Origin: Neolecta irregularis DAH-3
Taxonomy: Eukaryota
Length of the DNA: 20,000 bases
Assembly: GCA_001929475.1 (NCBI GenBank)
Contig: LXFE01000976.1
Span: 51,120 to 71,119, forward strand
Reading direction: 5' to 3'
In this document: positions 1 to 18,556 of the stretch, in pieces
How positions within the stretch are numbered: position 1 is the first letter of the stretch
Layout of the letters: each line of letters starts with the position of its first letter
The notes under the pieces: model-generated
What the model was told of the DNA's origin: nothing
Database searches by the model: none
Seen by the model: the letters and a program-made list of their open reading frames with translations, nothing else
Program-made: the position numbers and the translations under genes

Positions 1-1639
1 TTGACAACATCGGTGCCAGGTCGGGTAACAGGTGCCTTAAGCCAATAACTCAGGACAGAGAGAACGCTATAGAATGGTTTCCATTCTGTCTCCCCCTTAC
101 TTCTGTATTGCACTCGACTGAAGAGTTCGGCAACGACGACTAAGTCGATGATCAATGGACTGGCGAGGAGCGAATCTTCGCAGACTGTATGCATGGAGAT
201 GGTCTAGTGATCAGAGGTAAACCAAAAGTAATGTACGTTTCGACCGCCCATCATCAGTTCGGAATGGTATTCATCCATAGCCACTTTGCTGTCTCCGACG
301 GCAGGAACGTATTTTATTACGATACAGTGATCAACGTTCTTTCCAACCTTGTCATTGAAAAGGATTTGGTTAGATGAAATAACATCATCAACGACGGAAG
401 CTTTTGAGATCTCTTTGCTTCGAAATTGTTGGGGAGCCGAGAGATTCTTTCCATCGTTGTTTCCGAGATGGTTGTAACTGACGATACTCAATGGTCGAAT
501 ACCAGCATCAACAAGAAATTGAGCGAGTACAGACTTGATTTTGGTTTGACCAGATTTGAAGTCTGGAGTTAGCATGAAATCAAGGTAGAGGAAAGCACCA
601 TCACCGCCGATGAAAGACCTTTTTTGTTCGGCGAGCTCGATACAGCCGGGAACGAGGGTGTTTTGCGGAGCACCGTTGATGAACGGAACACCTTCAAGGA
701 TACAAGCTAGCGCAAAGATCGTTGAGGGTGCAATTTCGGCGTGACTACTCTTGACAGCTTCGAGTAAGTTATCGGCGGTATCATTAACTCCTGGAATGAC
801 ATCGGCGTATCTCTCAGTGTTTGCAGTCCAAATGACGACGACTCGCTCAAGGCGATTCTTTTGTTTGAAATCTCGAATATCTTTTCGGATATGTTCGAGA
901 TGCGCAGATTTGTCATTTCCAGGGATTAGATTATCTGCTCGATCAGACTGGTTCGCAGCGATGAAGTCCGGATAATAGATACTGGGCAAGGGTTTAATTT
1001 GAGAAAGCTCCTTAGACACCTGTCGCTGAAGGTCGTATTCTAGGACCTTAGCTCGGGACATAGCGTTTGCCAAGTTGGCCGAGTTCTGAAGTCAGCAGTG
1101 ACAACCAATCCCAGTATACAATATCCCATCCGCCGATGACGAGGTCATTTGGATGGACCATTGGGACAATTTGAGAAAAGGGGACGTACACATCTTTCCC
1201 TTGTGCATCGATACCAAGTTTGAGAGTGGAAGATTGAGTAACGCTCCCATAGTAGTTGCTCTCTTGTAGGCCATTCTTTGTTTGAAAGGTTGTCTTGCTT
1301 CGATTGGCAACGATAGTAGCAGTGAGAGTGGAACCATTATTTCCGCCGAGACCGATCATCATCAAGCTGAGAATCAACGAGGATATCAATGGTATCCACA
1401 TACCCCGTTCGCCGGACATGAGTCTCGGTCTTGAATTCGAATGCAGATTTGGTGGGTCGAACAATCAATCTGTCGTTACTCTGAATGACATGGGCGTTTT
1501 CGTAGACATATTCGGACAAGATCTGATTAGCTTCATATTTGACATTTGGAGCATCAACAAAAACGGAAGGATCACGGGCTGCAGAACCATTGGAACTCGC
1601 GCCAATGGAAAGGTCTTGGGGAATAGCATGTGGTGCCAT
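1..1639 (-). CDS. INO1: Myo-inositol-1-phosphate synthase, 3' end beyond the window edge
   Basis: Conserved MIPS motifs [62 protein letters not shown] at 1639. Introns 1367-1403 (37 nt), 1086-1119 (34), 563-598 (36, in-frame) and 204-236 (33) restore a continuous protein. Confidence 0.97.
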
Positions 1640-1681
1640 AGTGAGGGTTGAGATTATATAGGTTTTCGATGTGGTAAAAAC

Positions 1682-1768
1682 TTATTTGGCAGCTCTCGGA
1701 TTAGCAGAGCAGCCACGGCGAGAAGAGCGGAAAGGGTGATGGGGCGAGTTCAAGAGATTTGAAAACAG
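1682..1768 (-). other. Candidate CUG-initiated upstream ORF (28 aa) in the INO1 leader
   Basis: TTCAAA-CTG start with A at -3; reads (M)FSNLLNSPHHPFRSSRRGCSANPRAAK*; stop lies 42 nt upstream of the INO1 ATG; no AUG between the TATA box and the INO1 ATG. Confidence 0.5.
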
Positions 1769-1855
1769 TTTGAATGAGCGCTGGGGCCGGACTACAAGAG
1801 TGGATGGAGTGCTGATGAGGGTAGGTGAGGAACAAAAGAAGTCGGGCAATGAGGG

Positions 1856-1929
1856 TTTTATAGTCTCGGATAGGCGCGAGCCAATAAAACACGACAGATT
1901 TACGGAGCATGTACTAGCAATTGACGTCA
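1856..1929 (-). promoter_or_regulatory. INO1 core promoter elements: TATAAAA (1856-1862), CCAAT (1881-1885, + strand), ATF/CRE palindrome TGACGTCA (1922-1929)
   Basis: Exact motif matches in the expected order upstream of a pyrimidine-rich leader. Confidence 0.55.
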
Positions 1930-2878
1930 GCAGGCATATTAGGGGATGCGCAGCATATAGCATATATTCAGCATATAGGTGGACACTGCCACTGAACTGA
2001 AATAATATGGGAGCAGTATATATGCACGGCATTATCCAACCAGCAGGCAGCGAGCAAGCACTCGCCTCACAATGTTTGAATACCTCTAGTGCTATCGAAT
2101 TCATCTATTAGTACTCTTAGATTGTCTGCAATCATTCCATTCACGGTCTAGCGCTCATTATCCTCGCCTCACCCATTGCACTCGCCTATTTAAGTACTGC
2201 CTGGTACTAATTGTACTCTTCTATTGAGTAATTAATACTACCTAGCACCAACTATACCCCCCTGGCGAGTGTATCCAGCAACATTGTATTCAACTCGTTA
2301 GTACTGTCAGCACTCATTGCACTTGCTTGTCAAATGTTGTCTAGCATCAATTATACTCATCTGTTTAAAATTGTCCAGTAATTCAACATTGCACAAAGCA
2401 ACTCCTTGGTTTTTCTTTTGTGCCAGCTGCCTCATTGGGCAGCTATGCGACTTTGTCTCTGATCACTCCCACCAACTTACTCAGCTTCTTTTGCATTCTA
2501 TGCCCACCGTGTCCTCGACGGTCTCGCTGATTTTTTGTCTGCATTTTCTGCCTCCTACTCTTACTCTTCGCGCTAATCACCATCGATCGCCACTTAGCTA
2601 AAGGTCTGGGACCAAACAGCTAATCATCCTCATATTACCCCTTTTTCTCCGCCAATTCCTTGTTATTGCGCTATTTCCTCCCTTCTTGCCCTTTCTTCGT
2701 TCATTGCATTCCTTCTCTCATCCTGGGGATTGTCCGATTCTCCGTCGGTCAATTAAACTTGTCGCCTCGCCATCCTTGTGTTCCCTCGGCTATCTCGGTC
2801 CCCTCACTGTCCTCCCCGTGCTCGGTCCTTTCGTTTTGCGATCCCTACATTCCTTCCGCTCGTGCAATAAATTTGTCC

Positions 2879-4907
2879 ATGATGGCCCTAGATAATTCCT
2901 CCAGAGTCAGTCATATCCTGCCCATTGTCACCTGCAGTTCTTGTGCCGCCGAGGTCGAACTCTCTATGATGGGGGATCATGTCTGCACACCTTGTGATTC
3001 GCCTCTCTTAATCTAGCTAATGTTGATAGTGCCTCCTATTCACGTTTCAGGAAATGCACTACCCGGTCACCAACATCAACGCCCAACCATTCGTAACCCT
3101 TCTTTCTGTACGCCTTTTCCTTTGTCCTCTTTTTCTGACTTTCTAGCTTCTTATGATTCAAACCATCCATCTAATGCTCGTACTCCTAACACTCCGCCTA
3201 ACGAACGATTTCCTTATCAATATCATCAGCAACCGGTGGCCCCAATGCAAAATTCACACTATCCTAACTTACGAAAAGAGAATAGTCAGACCTCTAATTA
3301 TAATACTAATGACCAACAGCTTGGAACGGGTCGCTTTTCAAGTGCATCTTCGACCAGCAGTATTCTTAAACAGGATCCGCGATTTCCTGCACCACAACGT
3401 TCGATACACGACTTGCTTCAACGACAACTTCCTGGAGATAAGTGGGAGCTCGCTCCACCGAACGAATACGATCGTCTGACTGGAGATAGTGACGACGATG
3501 ACATCCATCCTGGTGCCCGAAAACACCCTCGATCTCACAAAGTTCGAGGTTCACCTGCTCCACCAGTCTTTATCGAGAATGGCGTCAGAGACGATCCCTA
3601 TAGTTCTCTTCGTTCGCAAGAAGCCCCTGCCCGTCCCAGGACGGGAGATCAACATATCCGTCCAATGCATTCTCAGACCCAGCGAGGATTCCCAATACAA
3701 TGGGCCCGAGGGCCTCAGAATTACCGTGATCCGCCTCTGCAAGAAAATGGCAGACCACCGCCTCAAGCATATTCTAACAAACCTCATCAACAACGACCAA
3801 TGACTTCGGATCGCAGATATGATTCCCCTCAACCACATGACATACTACCAAATGGGCAGAACCGCGAATCAAACAGCTCCGCGATGTCATACCGGTCAGA
3901 GGGCGTAAGAGCACCACGACATCCCTCCCTACACGAATCAGCGCCCAGAACAGCCTGTGGCTACCACGAAAGTCGACCAGGCTATCAGAATGATGCTAGC
4001 GACCGTCATCTAATGAATTGGGCTCGTCGTGATGAAGCAGCTCGAGGGCAAGCCTCTTCCACATCCAGCAAACGAACCGCAAGAACACCGCCTCAGCATC
4101 GACGTTTTCCTTCACGGCCCCCCCATGAATATCATTTTGAGAAGAAGTATAGTCGCGGATCCAGTGTTACTTCTGGTAGCGGATCTATGGCTAGCGATTA
4201 TCTGGCGAATTCGAGTGCTGCTTCAAGTAGGCTACCTCACCAACTCATACTGATTATATAGGTCCCCCCATATCCAATATTTCATCAACTGCTCCACGCA
4301 CAAAATTGCAACAGCCTCCTATCGATCGGGGCTTTAATAACATCCTCCAAGACATTGAATCCCAAATGGCACAACTGCAACCTTCTCCGTTCAGTCCCGA
4401 CCAAACCTCCATTTCAACCCACAAGAGAGGAACAGACACTCATTGTAGAGCATGTGGAAAAGCCGTGCAAGGAAAGGGCTTGACCTCATCAGATGGGAAG
4501 CTCTCTGGAAAATATCATAAAGAATGTTTCCGCTGTCTAGCCTGCCACGCTTCTTTCCCTAACTTCGAATTCTATATTTATAAAGATAACCCATACTGTT
4601 CATTCGATTACCACAAACTCAATGGTTCCATATGTCTGACCTGTGGCCAGGGTATCGAAGGGACCTGTCTACAAATCGAAGGCGGTGAAAGACATCACCC
4701 TATTTGTTTCACTTGTTCCGTATCCCCCCATCTTATTCGTGGATGAAAAGTTGACTGTCTTAGGAATGCGGGTCCACACTTGATCAGGACTATTTTGACA
4801 TAAGCGGACGACCTTATTGTGAACGACATGCAATGCGTTTGGCAAAAATGGATATTAAATCAAACCTCCACATGGAACGGAGAAGAACCAGAATAATGAT
4901 GATGTAA
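2879..4907 (+). CDS. Fungal LIM-domain (paxillin-like) protein: N-terminal CxxC...HxC motif, long low-complexity middle, two C-terminal LIM domains
   Basis: N-terminal CSSCAAEVELSMMGDHVC; LIM1 CRACGK...HKECFRCLAC...YCSFDYH; LIM2 CLTCGQ...HPICFTCSEC...YCERH; ends ERRRTRIMMM*. Introns 2994-3029, 3108-3146 (in-frame), 4227-4261, 4720-4763. Confidence 0.88.
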
Positions 4908-5163: not shown

Positions 5164-6960
5164 CTAAAACTTAATTTTGGTTGCTTTTACGGTGTCGTCG
5201 ATATCCTTAAAATGCGCTCCATACGCTGAATGTTCCTTCTTCTTGACGTGGGTACCGAATTTCGTCAGTTCTTCAGGGACCTGGATGGGTAAGTCATAGC
5301 CAACATAAAATAAAGGTACATGTTGCCCGGCTCGTTTCAAGACGTTTACGAGATTCCCAGAATGGCCTTTATCTTGTGAAGTGAACAAGGTAATGGCCCT
5401 TCCCTTCGCCCCTGCTCTACCTGTCCGACCGATTCGGTGCACATAATCTTCAATGGTCAGTGGGAACGTCAAGTTTATGACAATTTCGACTTTGGGGATA
5501 TCGAGACCTCGAGCAGCGACATCTGTTGCAATCAATAGGGGTGTTTTTCCGCTTTTAAAATCTTCAAGCGTTTGCGTTCGTTGAGCCTGGGATAAATCTC
5601 CGTGAATAGCCTTTGCATTGAACCCTTTTCTCTGGAGATTCATTTCGACTCGGCTTGCTTCTTTCTTGTACAATGCAAAGACAATGATTCGATCGTCTTT
5701 TCTCGTCCCGGATTGATGTTCTTTGAGCAATTGATATAACCGATGTTCTTTATCTCGTGGATCTTCAATGACTTCAACTATCTGAGTAACGTTTTGCGAA
5801 GCTGCCAAATCGTCGCTGCCAATTGTAATTTTCACGGGATCAACCATAAATTCATCAGCTAATCTGCGAATACTTTCAGGCCATGTAGCACTCGTCATCA
5901 CCGTCTGTCGTTTTTCTCGGCTAGGACAATTTCGAATGATACGCTTGATTTCTACTTCGAATCCCGTATCCAACATTCGATCCGCCTCGTCAAGGATGAG
6001 GAAACTGATTTTACTCATATCCGCTGCTCCTTCTTCGATGAGATCGTTGATTCGACCTGGTGTACCCACGATGATATTCGCTTTTAACAAGTTCCTGCGT
6101 TGAGCGTCTTTCGCGACTCCGCCGTAAAGACAAACACTACGAACGCCTACTTTTTCTCCAAGTTGAGTGAGAGCTTCGTGAGTCTGCATAGCGAGCTCCC
6201 TCGTCGGTGAAAGTACAAGGACACTGACGCCTTCTAATTCGTTGAGGAGAATATGGTTAATTGCAGGGAGACCGAAAGCCATTGTCTTTCCGGATCCTGT
6301 CTCGGCGATTCCAACGAGATCGGTTCCTGAGAGGAGATATGGCCACGATGCAGACTGAATGGGTGTAGGTTTTTTGTAGTTTGACAGACCAGCTGATAGT
6401 AATGGAGCTACAGAGAGATGCTCAAAAGAAAGAATAGGTGTGAGTTCAGATTTCGCAGCGACTTGGATTATGTGCTTCTTGAAAAATTCGTCAATCTCGA
6501 GGTTTGATACACTAGCAAGAGAGGACTGTTGAATGTAACTGGAAGAAATTCGTGTGCTTGATACTACTGTCGTAGAAGTCTTTCTCTCCTGTGGATCAGA
6601 CATTTCTTTAGCCTCTTGGGCTGCTTCCGAAGCTTTCCTTGCAGCTTTTAACTGAGCTCTTTCCTCGTAGATTTCCTTCATTCGAGGACCACCATTATTC
6701 AATTCTTCTTCGAAATTTTTTTTCGCAGCCTTCTTTGCATCTCTCTCTGCTTTCTTTGCAGCTTTGGTTGCTTTTTTTTCTTCTTTACTTACCCCGTTGG
6801 CTGCATCCGATGTGATCTTAAATTTTGCTTTCAATGCATTTTTCTCTGCCTTACGTTCGCTTTTCGTAGTCATATCTTCGTGTTCGACCTTTGTTTTCTT
6901 GCGTGTCCCATCCGTTGAACGGACTTTCCGTTTTTTGGACGTGGCTTCACTTGTTGTCAT
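5164..6960 (-). CDS. DBP3: DEAD-box RNA helicase, 60S biogenesis (Dbp3-like)
   Basis: Motifs PTPIQ, AETGSGKT, PTRELA, TPGR, DEAD, SAT, ARGLD, HRIGRTGRAG; K/E-rich N-terminus; Dbp3-type tail KFGTHVKKKEHSAYGAHFKD. One in-frame 39-nt intron at 5281-5319, which the ORF track reads through. Confidence 0.93.
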   Translation of the reverse strand: MTTSEATSKKRKVRSTDGTRKKTKVEHEDMTTKSERKAEKNALKAKFKITSDAANGVSKEEKKATKAAKKAERDAKKAAKKNFEEELNNGGPRMKEIYEERAQLKAARKASEAAQEAKEMSDPQERKTSTTVVSSTRISSSYIQQSSLASVSNLEIDEFFKKHIIQVAAKSELTPILSFEHLSVAPLLSAGLSNYKKPTPIQSASWPYLLSGTDLVGIAETGSGKTMAFGLPAINHILLNELEGVSVLVLSPTRELAMQTHEALTQLGEKVGVRSVCLYGGVAKDAQRRNLLKANIIVGTPGRINDLIEEGAADMSKISFLILDEADRMLDTGFEVEIKRIIRNCPSREKRQTVMTSATWPESIRRLADEFMVDPVKITIGSDDLAASQNVTQIVEVIEDPRDKEHRLYQLLKEHQSGTRKDDRIIVFALYKKEASRVEMNLQRKGFNAKAIHGDLSQAQRTQTLEDFKSGKTPLLIATDVAARGLDIPKVEIVINLTFPLTIEDYVHRIGRTGRAGAKGRAITLFTSQDKGHSGNLVNVLKRAGQHVPLFYVGYDLPIQVPEELTKFGTHVKKKEHSAYGAHFKDIDDTVKATKIKF

Positions 6961-11178: not shown

Positions 11179-14100
11179 TCACATCCACCACATAAGATTG
11201 ACAAGCTTATCTGAGATCTTCTTCAAAGGCGCAGGTTCATGATCTCCAGAGGCTCCGCTGTTGATACTCTGGGTCTCTGAATGATGCTGTAAGAGAAGTG
11301 AACCTTGATTGCCAATAACATGAGCATGGTAAATCGGAGTTACTGTGGTCAGTAAATGTGCGTCGGTAGTTGACACACAAATAGAAACAGATGTAGTAGA
11401 TCGGCCAAACGTATGGCACATGGCAAAAATTGCATTTTGAAGAGGTTCTGCCTTGAACCCATTTTCATCTTTGATAACATCTGTATTTGTGAGTCAAGTC
11501 CTGCATCTAGAGAGCATGCTGTAGTAAGTTGGTCGCGCGGTGCCTTGAATGGCAGTATGAGAGTTCAAAACTTGTGAAAGATCAGTAGTAGTTAACATAA
11601 GAACTCACAGAAATCGAAATCCACGGGATGCGTGACGACTTTCTCAATTAAAGTCCCTGGGACAAGATTTCCATTCCTATCGGCTGCTTCGGAAGAGACA
11701 GGGAAAAACCTGGTATGATGACGCTGATGGATTAGTGTAAATAGAGCTCAGGATAATTACTTTGGTCGCAATAACAACAGTAATCCTTGGTCGAGAAATT
11801 TTCAGTTGCGTACATGCATCTTTATCATTGTCATCATTAGAAGTATAGGTATGAACCTTCAATGTCTTTGACCTCAATAGCATTAACTTGCGCATATTGG
11901 CCGTCGGAAACACCATCTCGGAAATAAACAATTCTTTGAGGATGTTTTTTGTTTGAAATGATCCATTGCTGTATAATTTCCTTGGCCATGTCTAAATCTT
12001 TAGCTTAATTGGAGATAAACGAAACTCTTCATGTCGGCGATCATTTCCTGTCGTGATGTCTGAGTTCCAACACGGCCAACCCATTTACAGGTCGCAAAAT
12101 CGATGCATCCAACAACACTAGGGAGAGAAGACTGCTGACTACCAGGAGCAGCTATTGCATAAGAACGCAAATAGAGTTTAAAGAAATTTACCGTGCGAGA
12201 CATCCGCGCCAAGAACAAGCTACTAGATCAGCATTATAAAAACTCTTAATCTCACGGTAGGTTTATCTGCGAACGGAGTATTTGCAACCGGAAGCTTATT
12301 GTTAATACCTCCAAGTTTCTGGTTGACTTTCATGATAACGTTTCGGCAGAGATTGGGTCGGGCCTATTGCTAAATCTAGTTCTAATTGGATTACATACAT
12401 CGCATAAATTTTTAGCAGTAATCACTTGCGAAGTAATCCCAGCTGTATAAAATATGCTTTTTACGAACGGATATAGTTGACTATTCTTGTCTTCGACAAT
12501 GATAAATACCATCCCAATTGGTTTTCCGCTCTTCTTCTGAGTATTAACGAGGAAACTCTTCACATCTTGTGCGAGATCAGCGACTGCAGGATTGAGCGTA
12601 GTGAATGCAGGCGGCGCTGTTCCAAATGACATACCTTAAGTTAATACTGAGTCAAGAGAATTACAACCTGCGTGCGAGGCAGAATTGGTAAGTTGGTCAA
12701 CAAAAGGCTTCGCATCTTCATATCCTCTAATTCTTCGGGCATAGGATATAATTGCCCAGCTTAAGACAGATTTAGGCTAATTCGTGAGATTCTACCGTAG
12801 CGGAAAGACAAGTACCTCGATAAAGGACAAATCTTGCTGTTCTCTATCCCATTTCCCGAAAATAGGCTTGAAGATATGGGATGCACGCGCTTTTCTCGGG
12901 TTTCTAGCGAACTCGAGGCTAGGTGGGCTAAGTAAACGTGCATTTATCTTGACCATATTATGCGAAATCTCCATTCCGAATTCTTTGAGATATGGATCGT
13001 TCTGCCATTTCAATGCTTCTACGTTCTTCTTGATTTCGGCTTTTCTCTTCATGGGACCCTTTAGATTAGAAACTATTAAAAATGACAGAAGAAAGCTACC
13101 ACACAAGCAAATTTGATCAATTCGGCCATTTGAGACGCGTCCGGCTGCGATCCAAGGGCCGTCATCTTGTCAATTAGAGACCTTTCAACTCGGTGATATA
13201 CCCCGTCGATATTCACAAAACATAATTCAAGGGGAATCGCAGTTCGATTTTGATTTTGTACAATCACAACTGGAAGATTGGGATATTTGAGGTTGTATTT
13301 CCATGCATCTTTGAAATGTTGAGCAACGGTGACTTTCTGTTCGTCCTTGATGAACGTGAGCATGTTGGCAGGCCTTCCAAGATTGTTAAAAGTATATATC
13401 TTTTTTAACGAGACATTGTCTCGCTTCATGTATGTTGTGTAAAACTTCATTTTACAAAACAGACTGTTGATTCGTCTGAGCTGATCTTGGGGCATGCCTC
13501 GGGCTGGATCACTGTTGGTAACTCTTTCTATAAGGCTCATCATGGAAACTTCACCGATATTCTGCCAGAAAACTCGGGTGGTGATATCAACGATTACATT
13601 CAGATTACCTGCTGGTAAGCTCCCGGCGTAAATCAGGAGGAAACCCAATGTCGGACGGACTGATTGATAAATGCCTCGCCTTGCCTGTACAAGTCTTGGT
13701 AGTTGTAAGGATTCAAAGTTATCTGGGTAAAAGCCTCTGCCGACAGAAGTAAATCTTTCTGAAGGACGTTGTCGCAATAACTGTGAAATCACATTGACGC
13801 CTATATTGTCAGATAGTCATCCTGTCACATGTACATTGAATAACAGAATCATCTTTGGCGTAATTTCTTTTAAGATATTTGCTGAGAACGTCCATATTGA
13901 TCTCCGCGACCTTTCGAATCGTGACAAGCAAATCTGATTTGCTCGCAATTCCGGATACCGACACAACAATCCCGTTTCCAAATGGCAAAGGTCCCAAGGA
14001 CCAAGCAAGTTTGTTTTCTTGATTGTCAGTAACGAGTAGAAAAGCCTGGTAGATACCATCGTAGATCACACGGCGCTTTTCGAAGGCCGCTTGTACTTGC

Positions 14101-14585: not shown

Positions 14586-14888
14586 GATTATTTGCAATAG
14601 AAGAGGTCCACAAGAGTGAATGTTTAGCAGCTGTATTTCGATGATGTAAGGGTATCCTGAGTAAATGTGGCAAAAGCGTGTTTTATCCAGGTATTACAGA
14701 GTAGGGGAGTTGGTGGCGCCAAATTACCAAGAAATGACGATAAAAGAAACTAATATTATGATATCAGCTAATACCCTAATTTTCAAAAATAAAACCAAAT
14801 TTACAAGTCCGGTTTTGGAATTGCATGATATATTTTCTTGTAGCTGTCGAACGCAGCCAAGTAGTGAATCCAATTTAGCCTGTACCAC

Positions 14889-15757
14889 ATGTCCAATCCC
14901 CCTTTCCTTGAAGCAGTTGCGCTTGATACAATCTCCTCAGTTTCAAACCGCTCCATATTCTCTGCAAAACTCCATTCGTCTTGGTGTATCGGCTCTGTGC
15001 CTCATGGGGGATACCAGTCGTCGATTTTAATTTCAGCTTTACAGAAACATGTTCGACACCACCATTCACAAACACCGGATATCTTCCACATCTCGATTCG
15101 TTTTCCAAACAAATCAGATGTTGGGCCAGCGGAATTTGTGGTCGTCCCGTTAAAACTGGGCCGAACTTACTGTTATTTTCAAGTCAAGTTACGTCAAAAT
15201 AACAAAACAAATATCGAAGCTACCGCCGTTTTTGGAAACTTTGACATAGAGATCGGCCCATCCTTTCCTCCGATTGGCATAACACCCATCAGTATTCGCA
15301 GTAACTGCAAGAAAACTGAACCAGCATTCCAGGATTTTCGAAAAGCAGCGAAATTTCTTGAGTATCGCGTACCCGAAACAGTTGGAGAGCGAGAGATTTT
15401 ACAGTGGGTTCGCTTCAATGATTCCACGCCCATAAATGATACTGGGCTGGGCTTTATCTGCGATATGGTATCCTATTCGGTATAAGCGCATGACTGAAAG
15501 AACAGTTTTCTCCTCCTGATTGGATTGAATCTAACAAGATCCACTGGTTTCCAACACTTGTTTTAGAGATCCAGTTTCGTAAGAGGTTCCAAATGGAATG
15601 GGTGCATGTGTTTTCGAAGACACGGATGATGCAGAATGGGCGCTTTGACCTTGATGTTGAAATTTGCGGGGAGAATGGCGAGTTACTTGCGCTCAGTCGA
15701 CATATGTGCATTGTATTGGATTCTTCTCGAAATACTGGCAATATCTCGCGTCTTTAG
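14889..15757 (+). CDS. Hot-dog-fold acyl-CoA thioesterase-like protein with C-terminal PTS1 (SRL)
   Basis: WCIGSVPHGGY, KLGRTY, LGFICDM, WFPTLVLEIQFRK, NGRFDLDVEI, GELLALSRH; one intron 15468-15505; ends ISRL*. Confidence 0.87.
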
Positions 15758-16225: not shown

Positions 16226-18556
16226 ATGTCTTTTGGAGAGATTGATCAGCTATGCATCAACACTATTAGAGTTTGAACCCTATCTGTATTTTCTGGTTGA
16301 TGAATAGATCCTAGCTGTAGATATGACATTTCAAGCCAATTCTGGCCATCCAGGTGCACCAATGGGGTTGGCGCCAGTTGCTCATGTGCTATTCAACAAA
16401 GTTTCCTCTTCAATTTTTGTGACTCAACTGATGGCCATGTAGTTTATGAAATTCAACCCCAAGAATCCAAAATGGGCCAATAGAGACCGATTCGTTTTGT
16501 CTAATGGTCATGCTTGTGCATTGCAATACATCCTGTTGCATCTATACGGATATGATATGACCATGGAGGATTTAAAAAACTTTCGGCAAGTAAATTCCAA
16601 AACGCCTGGCCATCCCGAAAACCATATATCCGGAATTGAAGTCACCACTGGCCCACTTGGTCAAGGTAGATGTTACTGTTGAGAATTAATAATCTAACTG
16701 GTTAATAGGGTTTTCCAATGCCGTTGGATTAGCTCTGGCTCAAACACATACAAGTGCAACTTTCAACAAAGATCAGTTTGACGTTATCAATAACTACACC
16801 TACGTTTTTACCGGGGATGGTTGCCTCATGGAAGGTGTTGCCTCCGAGGCTGCTTCCCTGGCTGGTCACTTGAAGCTCGGTAATCTTATCTGCATTTACG
16901 ATGACAACCACATCTCTATTGATGGAGATACAAACTGCGCTTTCACGGAAGATGTCGACAAAAGATTTGAGGCTTACGGATGGCAAACCTTTGTTGTCGA
17001 GAAAGGTGACACTGACCTTGAGTCTATCTCTGCAGCCATCGAAAAGGCCAGAAAGGTTCGAGACAAACCATCCATTATCCGACTGAGGACAACTATTGGA
17101 TTTGGTTCCAAGATTGCTGGGACCGGAAAGGTTCACGGAAGTCCGCTCAGCAAAGAAGATGCTATGCATGTCAAATCAATCTTTGGCTTCGACTCTGAGA
17201 AATCGTTCCAAGTCCCCGATATAGTTTACGAATTTTATCGTAAAACTGCCACAAAGGGAGCCAAAGTCGAGAAAGAATGGAATATCCTTTTCTCCGAATA
17301 CGAAAATAAGTATTCATCAGAAGCCGCCCAACTTAAAAGGCGATTGACAGGGAAGCTCCCTGAAGGTTGGGAGAAATCCCTTCCAACCTATTCTCCCGAA
17401 GATAAGGCTATCGCTTCAAGAACTCTGTCTCAGACTATCATTGAGAAACTTGCTCATGTCATTCCAGAATTCATCTGCGGGTCTGCAGATCTTACAGGTT
17501 CAAATCTAACGCGATGGAAGGATGCTGTTGATTTTCAACACGTATGCCGTATCTACTGAAACATCTGCTTACTTGCAGCCATCAACCGGTCTTGGTGATT
17601 ACTCCGGCAGATACGTTCGATACGGAGTTCGAGAACATGCCATGGCCGGATTGATGAATGGAATGGCGGCCTACGGTACCATCATCCCAGCTGGAGGAAC
17701 TTTCTTGAATTTCATCTCTTATGCCGCTGGAAGCGTTCGTCTTTCTGCATTGTCTCACCACCAAGTCATATATATAGCTACCCATGACTCTATTGGACTG
17801 GGAGAAGATGGCCCAACTCATCAACCTATTGAAACAATGGCTCACTTCCGAGCCTTACCAAACATGATGGTCTGGAGGGTATCCAAGAACATTATCTATG
17901 TAGCTGATAATTCAGCCCGCCGATGGAAATGAAACTTCTGCTGCTTACTATATTGCCTTAACAGAAAGAGGAAAACCTACGATTATGGCTTTGTCTCGTC
18001 AGAACCTTCCGCAATTGAGCGGCTCGACTATAGGAAAAGCCATCAAGGGAGGCTACACGCTTCTAGAGACCCACGAGAAGGCAGATATCACACTCATCTC
18101 CACCGGTAGTGAAGTTGGGATTTGCGTCGATGCCGTGAAAATCCTCAAAATGCAAGGAATCAAAGCCCGAGTTGTTTCTCTTCCTTGCTGGGAAGTTTTC
18201 GATACGCAATCCAAAGACTATAAGTATGCATTTGATTTTTATATCTCAAATCTAACTGTCGCTAGACTCTCGGTCCTGCCTGATGATATTCCTATTCTTT
18301 CCGTGGAAGTTTATTCCACCCTCGGATGGGAGAAATATTCCCACGAGCAATTTGGAATCAACACATTCGGTGCTTCCGGGCCATATAAAGATGTATATAA
18401 AAAGTACGACTTCATCCCTGAGGGTATCGCGAAGAGGGCTGCGCAGACGGTTGAATTTTGGAAAGGTATATGTCTGCGAAATCGCCGATCTCTAATAATT
18501 AAGATGTTAAACCCATTCGTAGTCCCCTGAACAGAGCATTTGAGCAATTGATCTAA
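16226..18556 (+). CDS. TKL1: Transketolase
   Basis: [76 protein letters not shown]; ends [11 protein letters not shown]. Introns 16271-16307, 16401-16442, 16666-16708, 17542-17578, 17879-17915, 18224-18265, 18466-18503. Confidence 0.97.

Follow-up and report, generated by a model that had tools for sequence, protein, structure and literature searches.

How is inositol synthesis restrained in fungi outside the budding yeasts? Control of INO1, the gene for myo-inositol-3-phosphate synthase, is a textbook case, yet knowledge of it derives almost entirely from budding yeast and its transcriptional circuit; its counterpart in other fungi, which include plant and human pathogens, mycorrhizal fungi and model moulds, is poorly understood. 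The INO1 locus of Neolecta irregularis DAH-3 raises this question in a concrete form. In the 20,000 nucleotides that we analysed (contig LXFE01000976.1 of assembly GCA_001929475.1, positions 51,120 to 71,119; hereafter the window), a short frame opened by CTG lies in the INO1 leader, and a sequence-only reading had proposed that its nascent peptide stalls ribosomes in response to inositol or a derivative. Is this frame a genuine upstream ORF (uORF), and what would it do? Our analysis makes it likely that the segment is a conserved, translated, peptide-dependent cis-regulator of INO1, that is, a conserved-peptide uORF (CPuORF). For N. irregularis itself we infer translation of the uORF, arrest by its peptide and the signal.

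We began with the layout of the leader. On the minus strand, CTG at 1768-1766 starts a frame that runs for 28 sense codons, LFSNLLNSPHHPFRSSRRGCSANPRAAK, and closes with TAA at 1684-1682. The sequence-only reading had described a CTG in AAA context opening 28 codons, a region without AUG between TATAAAA and the INO1 start, a stop 42 nt ahead of that start, and a C-terminal half richer in GC than the AT-rich spacer behind it. Our reading agreed on all of these: the CTG has A at -3, no ATG occurs on the minus strand in 1640-1870, the spacer occupies 1681-1640 ahead of the ATG at 1639-1637, and GC content is 0.50 in codons 1-14, 0.57 in codons 15-28 and 0.36 in the spacer. The main gene is INO1 as assigned, since its product in the window, P0121 (548 aa), carries Pfam domains PF07994 and PF01658. 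The in-frame TTG that had been taken for a second near-cognate start is present at 1753, but it is the codon of a conserved leucine, Leu6, and not an alternative start. The encoded peptide is basic and rich in His and Cys. The only pointer to the 5′ end of the leader in the window is the TATAAAA at 1862-1856, whose position suggests that 1768 is included in the leader. The features of the window are collected in Table 1.

Table 1. Features of the INO1 leader and of the neighbouring genes in the window.
Feature	Position	Strand	Basis
INO1 (myo-inositol-3-phosphate synthase) coding region, running past the window start	1-1639	-	tblastn of P0121; Pfam; homologues at 72-77% identity
INO1 exons: ATG, exon 1, exon 2; later exons follow and run past the window start	1639-1637; 1639-1403; 1365-1120	-	tblastn
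AT-rich 42-nt spacer from uORF stop to INO1 ATG, without ATG	1640-1681	-	sequence reading
Conserved-peptide uORF, 28 sense codons and TAA	1682-1768	-	sequence reading; top HMM match; aligned with 53 orthologous uORFs
uORF stop TAA	1682-1684	-	sequence reading
Variable tail, codons 19-28; sequence drifts between lineages, length kept	1685-1714	-	pN/pS 0.67 (codons 19-27)
Conserved peptide core, codons 2-18, FSNLLNSPHHPFRSSRR	1715-1765	-	invariant N4, S8 and H10; pN/pS 0.26
Near-cognate start CTG (1768-1766) in context TTCAAA (1774-1769), A at -3	1766-1774	-	sequence and alignment
TATAAAA, candidate TATA box 88 nt upstream of the CTG	1856-1862	-	sequence only
413-aa low-complexity S/P/Q-rich ORF, divergent from INO1, no Pfam match	3020-4261	+	
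DEAD-box helicase	5167-6960	-	
Argonaute fragment (PAZ and linker 1 domains)	13079-13816	-	
Acyl-CoA thioesterase	14868-15482	+	
Transketolase, at least two exons	16693-18527	+	

Within the INO1 coding region, a 36-nt stretch at 563-598 (minus strand) looks like a tiny in-frame intron (GTGCTT...GCTAAC...CAG) and is coded as 12 residues in P0121. All homologues read straight across this point without the extra residues, and the other INO1 introns in the window are also only about 34-37 nt long; the P0121 protein model probably retains an intron here.

By itself, the frame in the window is within chance expectation. The leader strand is 65% pyrimidine (C 84, T 67, A 52 and G 28 in 231 nt) and stop codons are rare in it for that reason. 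When 1640-1855 was shuffled with dinucleotides preserved, 1586 of 2000 shuffles contained a closed near-cognate frame of at least 28 codons, and 1058 of 2000 still did so when a purine at -3 was required. Further near-cognate frames of 20-59 codons are also present in the real leader. Because shuffles so often gave equal length, a functionless open frame in a pyrimidine-rich leader was the first reading of the segment. The comparative data described below (HMM matches, alignment, pN/pS and invariant residues) led us to reject it; all of the comparative evidence refutes it, and we now give it next to no credence. What lifts the uORF above chance is its conservation across relatives. The uORF frame stays open for 112 codons further upstream, to an ATG at 2104; the 140 open codons that result (1682-2104, minus strand) are a by-product of the CT-rich strand and would be relevant only if transcription began upstream of the TATA box.

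To survey orthologous leaders, we searched metagenome contigs with an alignment of INO1, which yielded 80 eukaryotic INO1 loci; the taxon labels given to these loci express identity to named INO1 proteins only. A tblastn search with the 28-residue peptide returned plus-strand matches directly upstream of INO1 in many of them. A strict motif was present in 46 of 81 sources, with no reverse-strand match in 435 kb and three off-target matches on the plus strand. We then built an HMM from 36 distinct peptides, which gave 49 matches at E ≤ 1.8e-5, all of them on the INO1 strand and immediately upstream of INO1; the next-best match had an E value of 0.3, and the peptide was found nowhere else in the 435 kb of flanking sequence. 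Built without the window, the HMM still scored the window's uORF frame best when all six frames of the 20 kb were searched as fragments (E 3.2e-5; runner-up 0.13). The window copy is among the more divergent members, with a leave-one-out score of 19.3 bits (E 3.2e-5), and it deviates by S for G at position 15 and by one extra codon. Matches of a looser regular expression, one in the INO1 coding region of locus L006 and others at an unrelated site in L037 and L038, were discarded, as the HMM gave them no score. The segment matched in the L006 coding region (785) has its equivalent at 1120-1170 of the window (INO1 residues about 145-160), which shows a loose likeness to the uORF core (F-S-x-hydrophobic-hydrophobic-x-x-x-H) that is probably a coincidence.

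In total, a complete uORF was found in 53 of the 80 loci, or 54 copies with the window, of which 45 are contiguous and 9 split by an intron. Length is nearly fixed: 39 of the 54 have 27 codons, 48 have 26-29, and six Pezizomycotina-like loci have 31-32, so that the family ranges from 26 to 32 codons. Stop codons vary (TAA in 31, TGA in 21, TAG in 2). The first ATG after the uORF stop begins an INO1-like N-terminus in 54 of 54 cases, at a distance of 2-96 nt that shrinks to 2-5 nt in nine loci, and in 14 cases we confirmed that the main INO1 frame runs uninterrupted for at least 506 codons.

The alignment allowed us to ask what selection has preserved. Among the 45 distinct peptides, three residues never change (N4, S8 and H10), F or Y stands at position 2 in all 45, and L6 is kept in 44, G15 in 41 and R14 in 36, which gives the core pattern [FY]-[SA]-N-x-L-x-S-x-H-[HN]-x-[FYH]-R-G. 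Among 35 distinct 27-codon sequences, pN/pS was 0.39 in frame (pS 0.76, pN 0.30), compared with 0.97 and 1.44 in the two shifted frames. Within the frame, the ratio was 0.26 for codons 2-18 and 0.67 for codons 19-27, and the least conserved residues are those closest to the uORF stop. Invariant sites fall at none of 26 third codon positions, at 4 of 26 first positions and at 6 of 26 second positions. In six close relatives, pairwise differences number 73 at third positions versus 13 and 14 at the others. Even conserved residues change codon family: in 48 distinct sequences the invariant Ser8 has a TCN codon in 17 and an AGY codon in 31, and Arg14 has AGR in 19 and CGN in 20. These patterns indicate that purifying selection is acting on the peptide and not on the nucleotides. 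The sequence-only reading had named amino-acid conservation in orthologous leaders as the result on which it would stand or fall, and the peptide is clearly conserved, under purifying selection, in 53 of 80 loci.

The same data bear on the idea that the conserved feature is an RNA structure or a DNA binding site, with the frame a by-product. The leader does fold better than its shuffles (1637-1830, minus strand; MFE -28 kcal/mol, z -2.6, with 2 of 200 shuffles as good). However, RNAalifold predicted no pairs in 14 diverse uORFs, third positions vary freely, serine and arginine switch codon families, introns interrupt the DNA at three different places, and there is no inositol/choline-responsive element consensus near INO1. 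The sole match to the UAS-INO consensus in the window, with one mismatch, lies at 17167, far from INO1, with 2.6 expected by chance. A nucleic-acid element is thus an extremely improbable account of the conservation, and we dropped the RNA-structure reading for lack of a consensus structure in the 14 orthologues, despite the z score in the window. In the fold predicted for the window, the second half of the uORF pairs with sequence that lies upstream of the frame.

Is the frame read on mature mRNA? Introns bear on this question. One lies after nt 7 of the uORF frame in L001 and L003, the two loci whose INO1 is closest to that of the window. Six loci with an INO1 that begins MAPHAE have theirs after nt 23, with ...FSNLLNS encoded before it and ...HHP[FY]... 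after it. In L029 the intron follows nt 41. The three sites belong to three different lineages, and each time splicing restores frame, motif and length. A frame that depends on splicing is hard to explain unless the uORF is read on the mature mRNA. Transcript-like contigs led in the same direction. L018 is 83-89% identical to the genomic locus L030 and lacks two short introns (54 and 46 nt) of it, indicating that L018 derives from spliced mRNA; the uORF, at 197-280, and an INO1 ORF of 554 codons stand together on it. Several mRNA-sized contigs contain both uORF and INO1, and of 11 transcript-like contigs, 10 have no ATG ahead of the uORF start.

We next examined the start codon. The codon aligned with the window CTG is ATG in 38 of the 54 members, ACG in 12, CTG in 2, ATT in 1 and GTG in 1, so that every member has ATG or a near-cognate codon there, the latter in all 16 non-ATG cases. 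Conservation of the amino acids sets in at residue 2. No in-frame upstream ATG is present in the open frame of 14 of the 16 non-ATG members, and in L010 a stop codon stands one codon ahead of the ATT. In the window, the in-frame upstream ATGs (2104, 2032 and 1963) all lie upstream of the TATA box. These observations support CUG 1768 as the uORF start, as the sequence-only reading had proposed. Context varies with the codon. The -3 base is T in 37 of 38 ATG members and C in the remaining one, and every one of the 16 non-ATG members has A there; for comparison, a purine occupies -3 of the main INO1 ATG in 39 of the 54. The start is weak by design: either a strong codon sits in the worst context or a weak one sits in the best, and both arrangements are expected to give partial initiation. 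That two routes lead to the same partial initiation argues that the efficiency of initiation at the uORF is itself under selection. AUG in poor context is the form found in basidiomycete-like loci. There, TGC nearly always precedes the uORF ATG (TGCATGT; for example L012 1061-1070 and L018 191-200), and sequence further upstream is variable. This conservation exceeds the single -3 position and may be more than a poor Kozak context.

How widely is the uORF distributed? The window INO1 is nearest to those of early-diverging ascomycetes (Blastobotrys, Sugiyamaella and Lipomyces, 76-77%; Saitoella, 75%; Protomyces, 72%). Carriers of the uORF include, by INO1 identity, many Armillaria-like agaricomycetes (75-83%), a Tremella/Cryptococcus-like locus (76%), other basidiomycete-like loci, and Glomeromycotina-like (83-85%) and Mortierella-like (89%) loci. 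Another carrier, L067, is 98% identical to Cladosporium INO1, which places it in the Pezizomycotina. Among the 27 loci without a complete uORF, two (L016 and L039) have a contig end inside the uORF and are not counted in the 54, 11 have at most 39 nt upstream of INO1, three have 69-124 nt, and 11 have at least 164 nt. The last group consists of five Saccharomycotina-like loci, L063, the AT-rich L064 and four others of unclear or non-fungal affinity, for which the best-matching reference protein comes from a red alga or a distant fungus. Neither the HMM nor inspection by eye found a uORF in the five Saccharomycotina-like loci, each with at least 1.1 kb upstream. In L063, a Pezizomycotina-like locus with 1261 nt upstream and an INO1 beginning MAPHAN..., no uORF was recognisable by inspection or HMM (900-1262), and the locus may represent a lineage-specific loss or a strongly diverged copy. 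Absence from 11 loci despite at least 164 nt of upstream sequence means that the uORF is dispensable in some lineages. Judging from this distribution, the uORF looks ancestral to Dikarya and Mucoromycota-grade fungi and lost in budding yeasts.

Together, these results suggest how the element might work. The uORF is the start site that scanning ribosomes would meet first, and the AUG that comes after it is that of INO1. A fraction of scanning ribosomes would initiate at CUG, a weak codon in the best fungal context, and would make the 28-residue peptide, whose N-terminal core is under purifying selection. The nascent peptide would then act in cis, slowing or arresting its own ribosome within the uORF or at its end, and the arrested ribosome would block those that had leaked past the weak start, so that INO1 translation falls; arrest may also expose the mRNA to nonsense-mediated decay. 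A chain of 26-32 residues would, at termination, not yet have emerged from the exit tunnel. The nine loci with 2-5-nt spacers make reinitiation unlikely and favour leaky scanning: in these, the INO1 AUG would lie underneath a ribosome standing at the uORF stop. The tail holds its length despite its drift in sequence, which suggests that the distance from core to stop matters. The poor conservation near the stop is unusual for arrest at termination and counts against it.

Amino-acid conservation alone does not separate an action in cis from one in trans, and the basic, His/Cys-rich peptide could be imagined as a released micropeptide acting, for example, on the INO1 enzyme or an inositol transporter, with any effect on INO1 translation incidental. 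Against this, linkage to the INO1 leader is strict (54 of 54), the HMM finds no other copy in the 435 kb, the starts are poor, the tail is variable, and the 26-32 residues match no domain family in the five peptides scanned. We therefore regard a trans-acting product as quite improbable and favour the cis-acting uORF.

The signal to which a cis-acting peptide would respond is the next question. Since INO1 catalyses the committed step of inositol synthesis, the simplest guess is feedback by inositol or a close derivative, and we offer it tentatively: the sole link of the peptide to inositol is its position ahead of INO1. The main rival is a ligand-independent role. The uORF would then still be conserved, translated and cis-acting, and it would impose a constitutive ceiling through a ligand-independent pause, or couple INO1 to start-codon stringency, to eIF2 under stress or to nonsense-mediated decay. 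A weak start is just what exposes a uORF to changes in initiation stringency. Against this rival, the conserved-peptide uORFs known from leaders of biosynthetic enzymes mostly respond to the product of the pathway, and selection on 17 residues, three of them invariant across several phyla, exceeds what a simple barrier needs. A preprint reports that INO1 is up-regulated in a Cryptococcus neoformans upf1 deletion mutant (10.64898/2026.02.19.706931); the rise fits a uORF-bearing mRNA exposed to nonsense-mediated decay, and it also lends the ligand-independent role some support. Overall we judge that role rather unlikely.

The proposal of inositol feedback was modelled on the arginine attenuator peptide of Neurospora arg-2 and yeast CPA1, in which product-dependent arrest at the uORF stop blocks scanning ribosomes and triggers nonsense-mediated decay. 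The analogy held in part. Both are fungal uORFs, the attenuator of about 25 codons, with a conserved peptide, a weak start that ribosomes can leak past (in the attenuator its poor context lets most of them do so), and a biosynthetic enzyme downstream; the INO1 uORF is also nearly fixed in length. No relation in sequence exists. Pfam presumably contains a model of the CPA1 leader, and five INO1 uORF peptides scanned at E ≤ 10 matched no family. The pathway also differs, the main ORF being INO1 and not the small subunit of arginine-specific carbamoyl-phosphate synthetase; INO1 uORFs often start at a non-AUG codon, and their peptide is best conserved N-terminally. A mode of action like that of the arginine attenuator is, by analogy, reasonable for the INO1 uORF.

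Other systems offered further parallels. The uCC of antizyme inhibitor and ODC homologues is likewise a conserved-peptide uORF with a near-cognate start in good context. It occurs across kingdoms, and a metabolite-dependent elongation pause in it queues ribosomes and so raises initiation at the weak start. Conservation in the uCC centres on a proline-rich pause motif at the C-terminus, and the uCC lies ahead of an ODC homologue, whereas the INO1 uORF lacks such a motif and has a conserved core at codons 2-18 and a variable tail; gene and metabolite differ, and basidiomycete INO1 uORFs use AUG in poor context. The ACG-initiated uORF of plant GDP-L-galactose phosphorylase, an ascorbate feedback element that is reported to mediate feedback by the product, shares the near-cognate start, the conserved peptide and the position ahead of a controlling enzyme of a small-molecule pathway, but it is a plant uORF, longer, with an unrelated peptide and in another pathway. 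Budding-yeast control of INO1 through UAS-INO, Ino2, Ino4 and Opi1, together with the uORF of INO2, concerns the same enzyme and the same need, repression when inositol is available. The budding-yeast INO1 circuit is transcriptional, however, and differs from the present case in that the window has no UAS-INO consensus near INO1 and the five Saccharomycotina-like loci show no uORF. By analogy, then, the INO1 uORF resembles these uORFs in manner and is a sequence member of none. We found no description of an INO1 uORF in the literature; subscription journals and supplementary tables were outside the scope of this search, and uORF catalogues may list one.

A broader proposal is that the uORF is a ribosome-borne sensor of inositol or a derivative, an ancestral fungal feedback that predates the split between Dikarya and Mucoromycota-grade fungi and was replaced in budding yeasts by Opi1-Ino2/Ino4. 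We consider this proposal doubtful. If it is true, the peptide would be a new small-molecule-responsive arrest peptide, in a family where AUG in poor context or ACG, CUG, AUU and GUG in good context reach the same outcome. Responsiveness to a ligand would add it to a very short list of metabolite-sensing arrest peptides in eukaryotes. The family also amounts to a natural experiment on how start codons are tuned, with AUG and U at -3 in some members and near-cognate codons and A at -3 in others. Control of INO1 through the uORF is open to direct study in experimentally tractable Neurospora, Aspergillus, Cryptococcus and Coprinopsis. That the uORF is shared by Mortierella- and Glomeromycotina-like fungi, ascomycetes and mushrooms speaks for an old layer of translational control over inositol synthesis.
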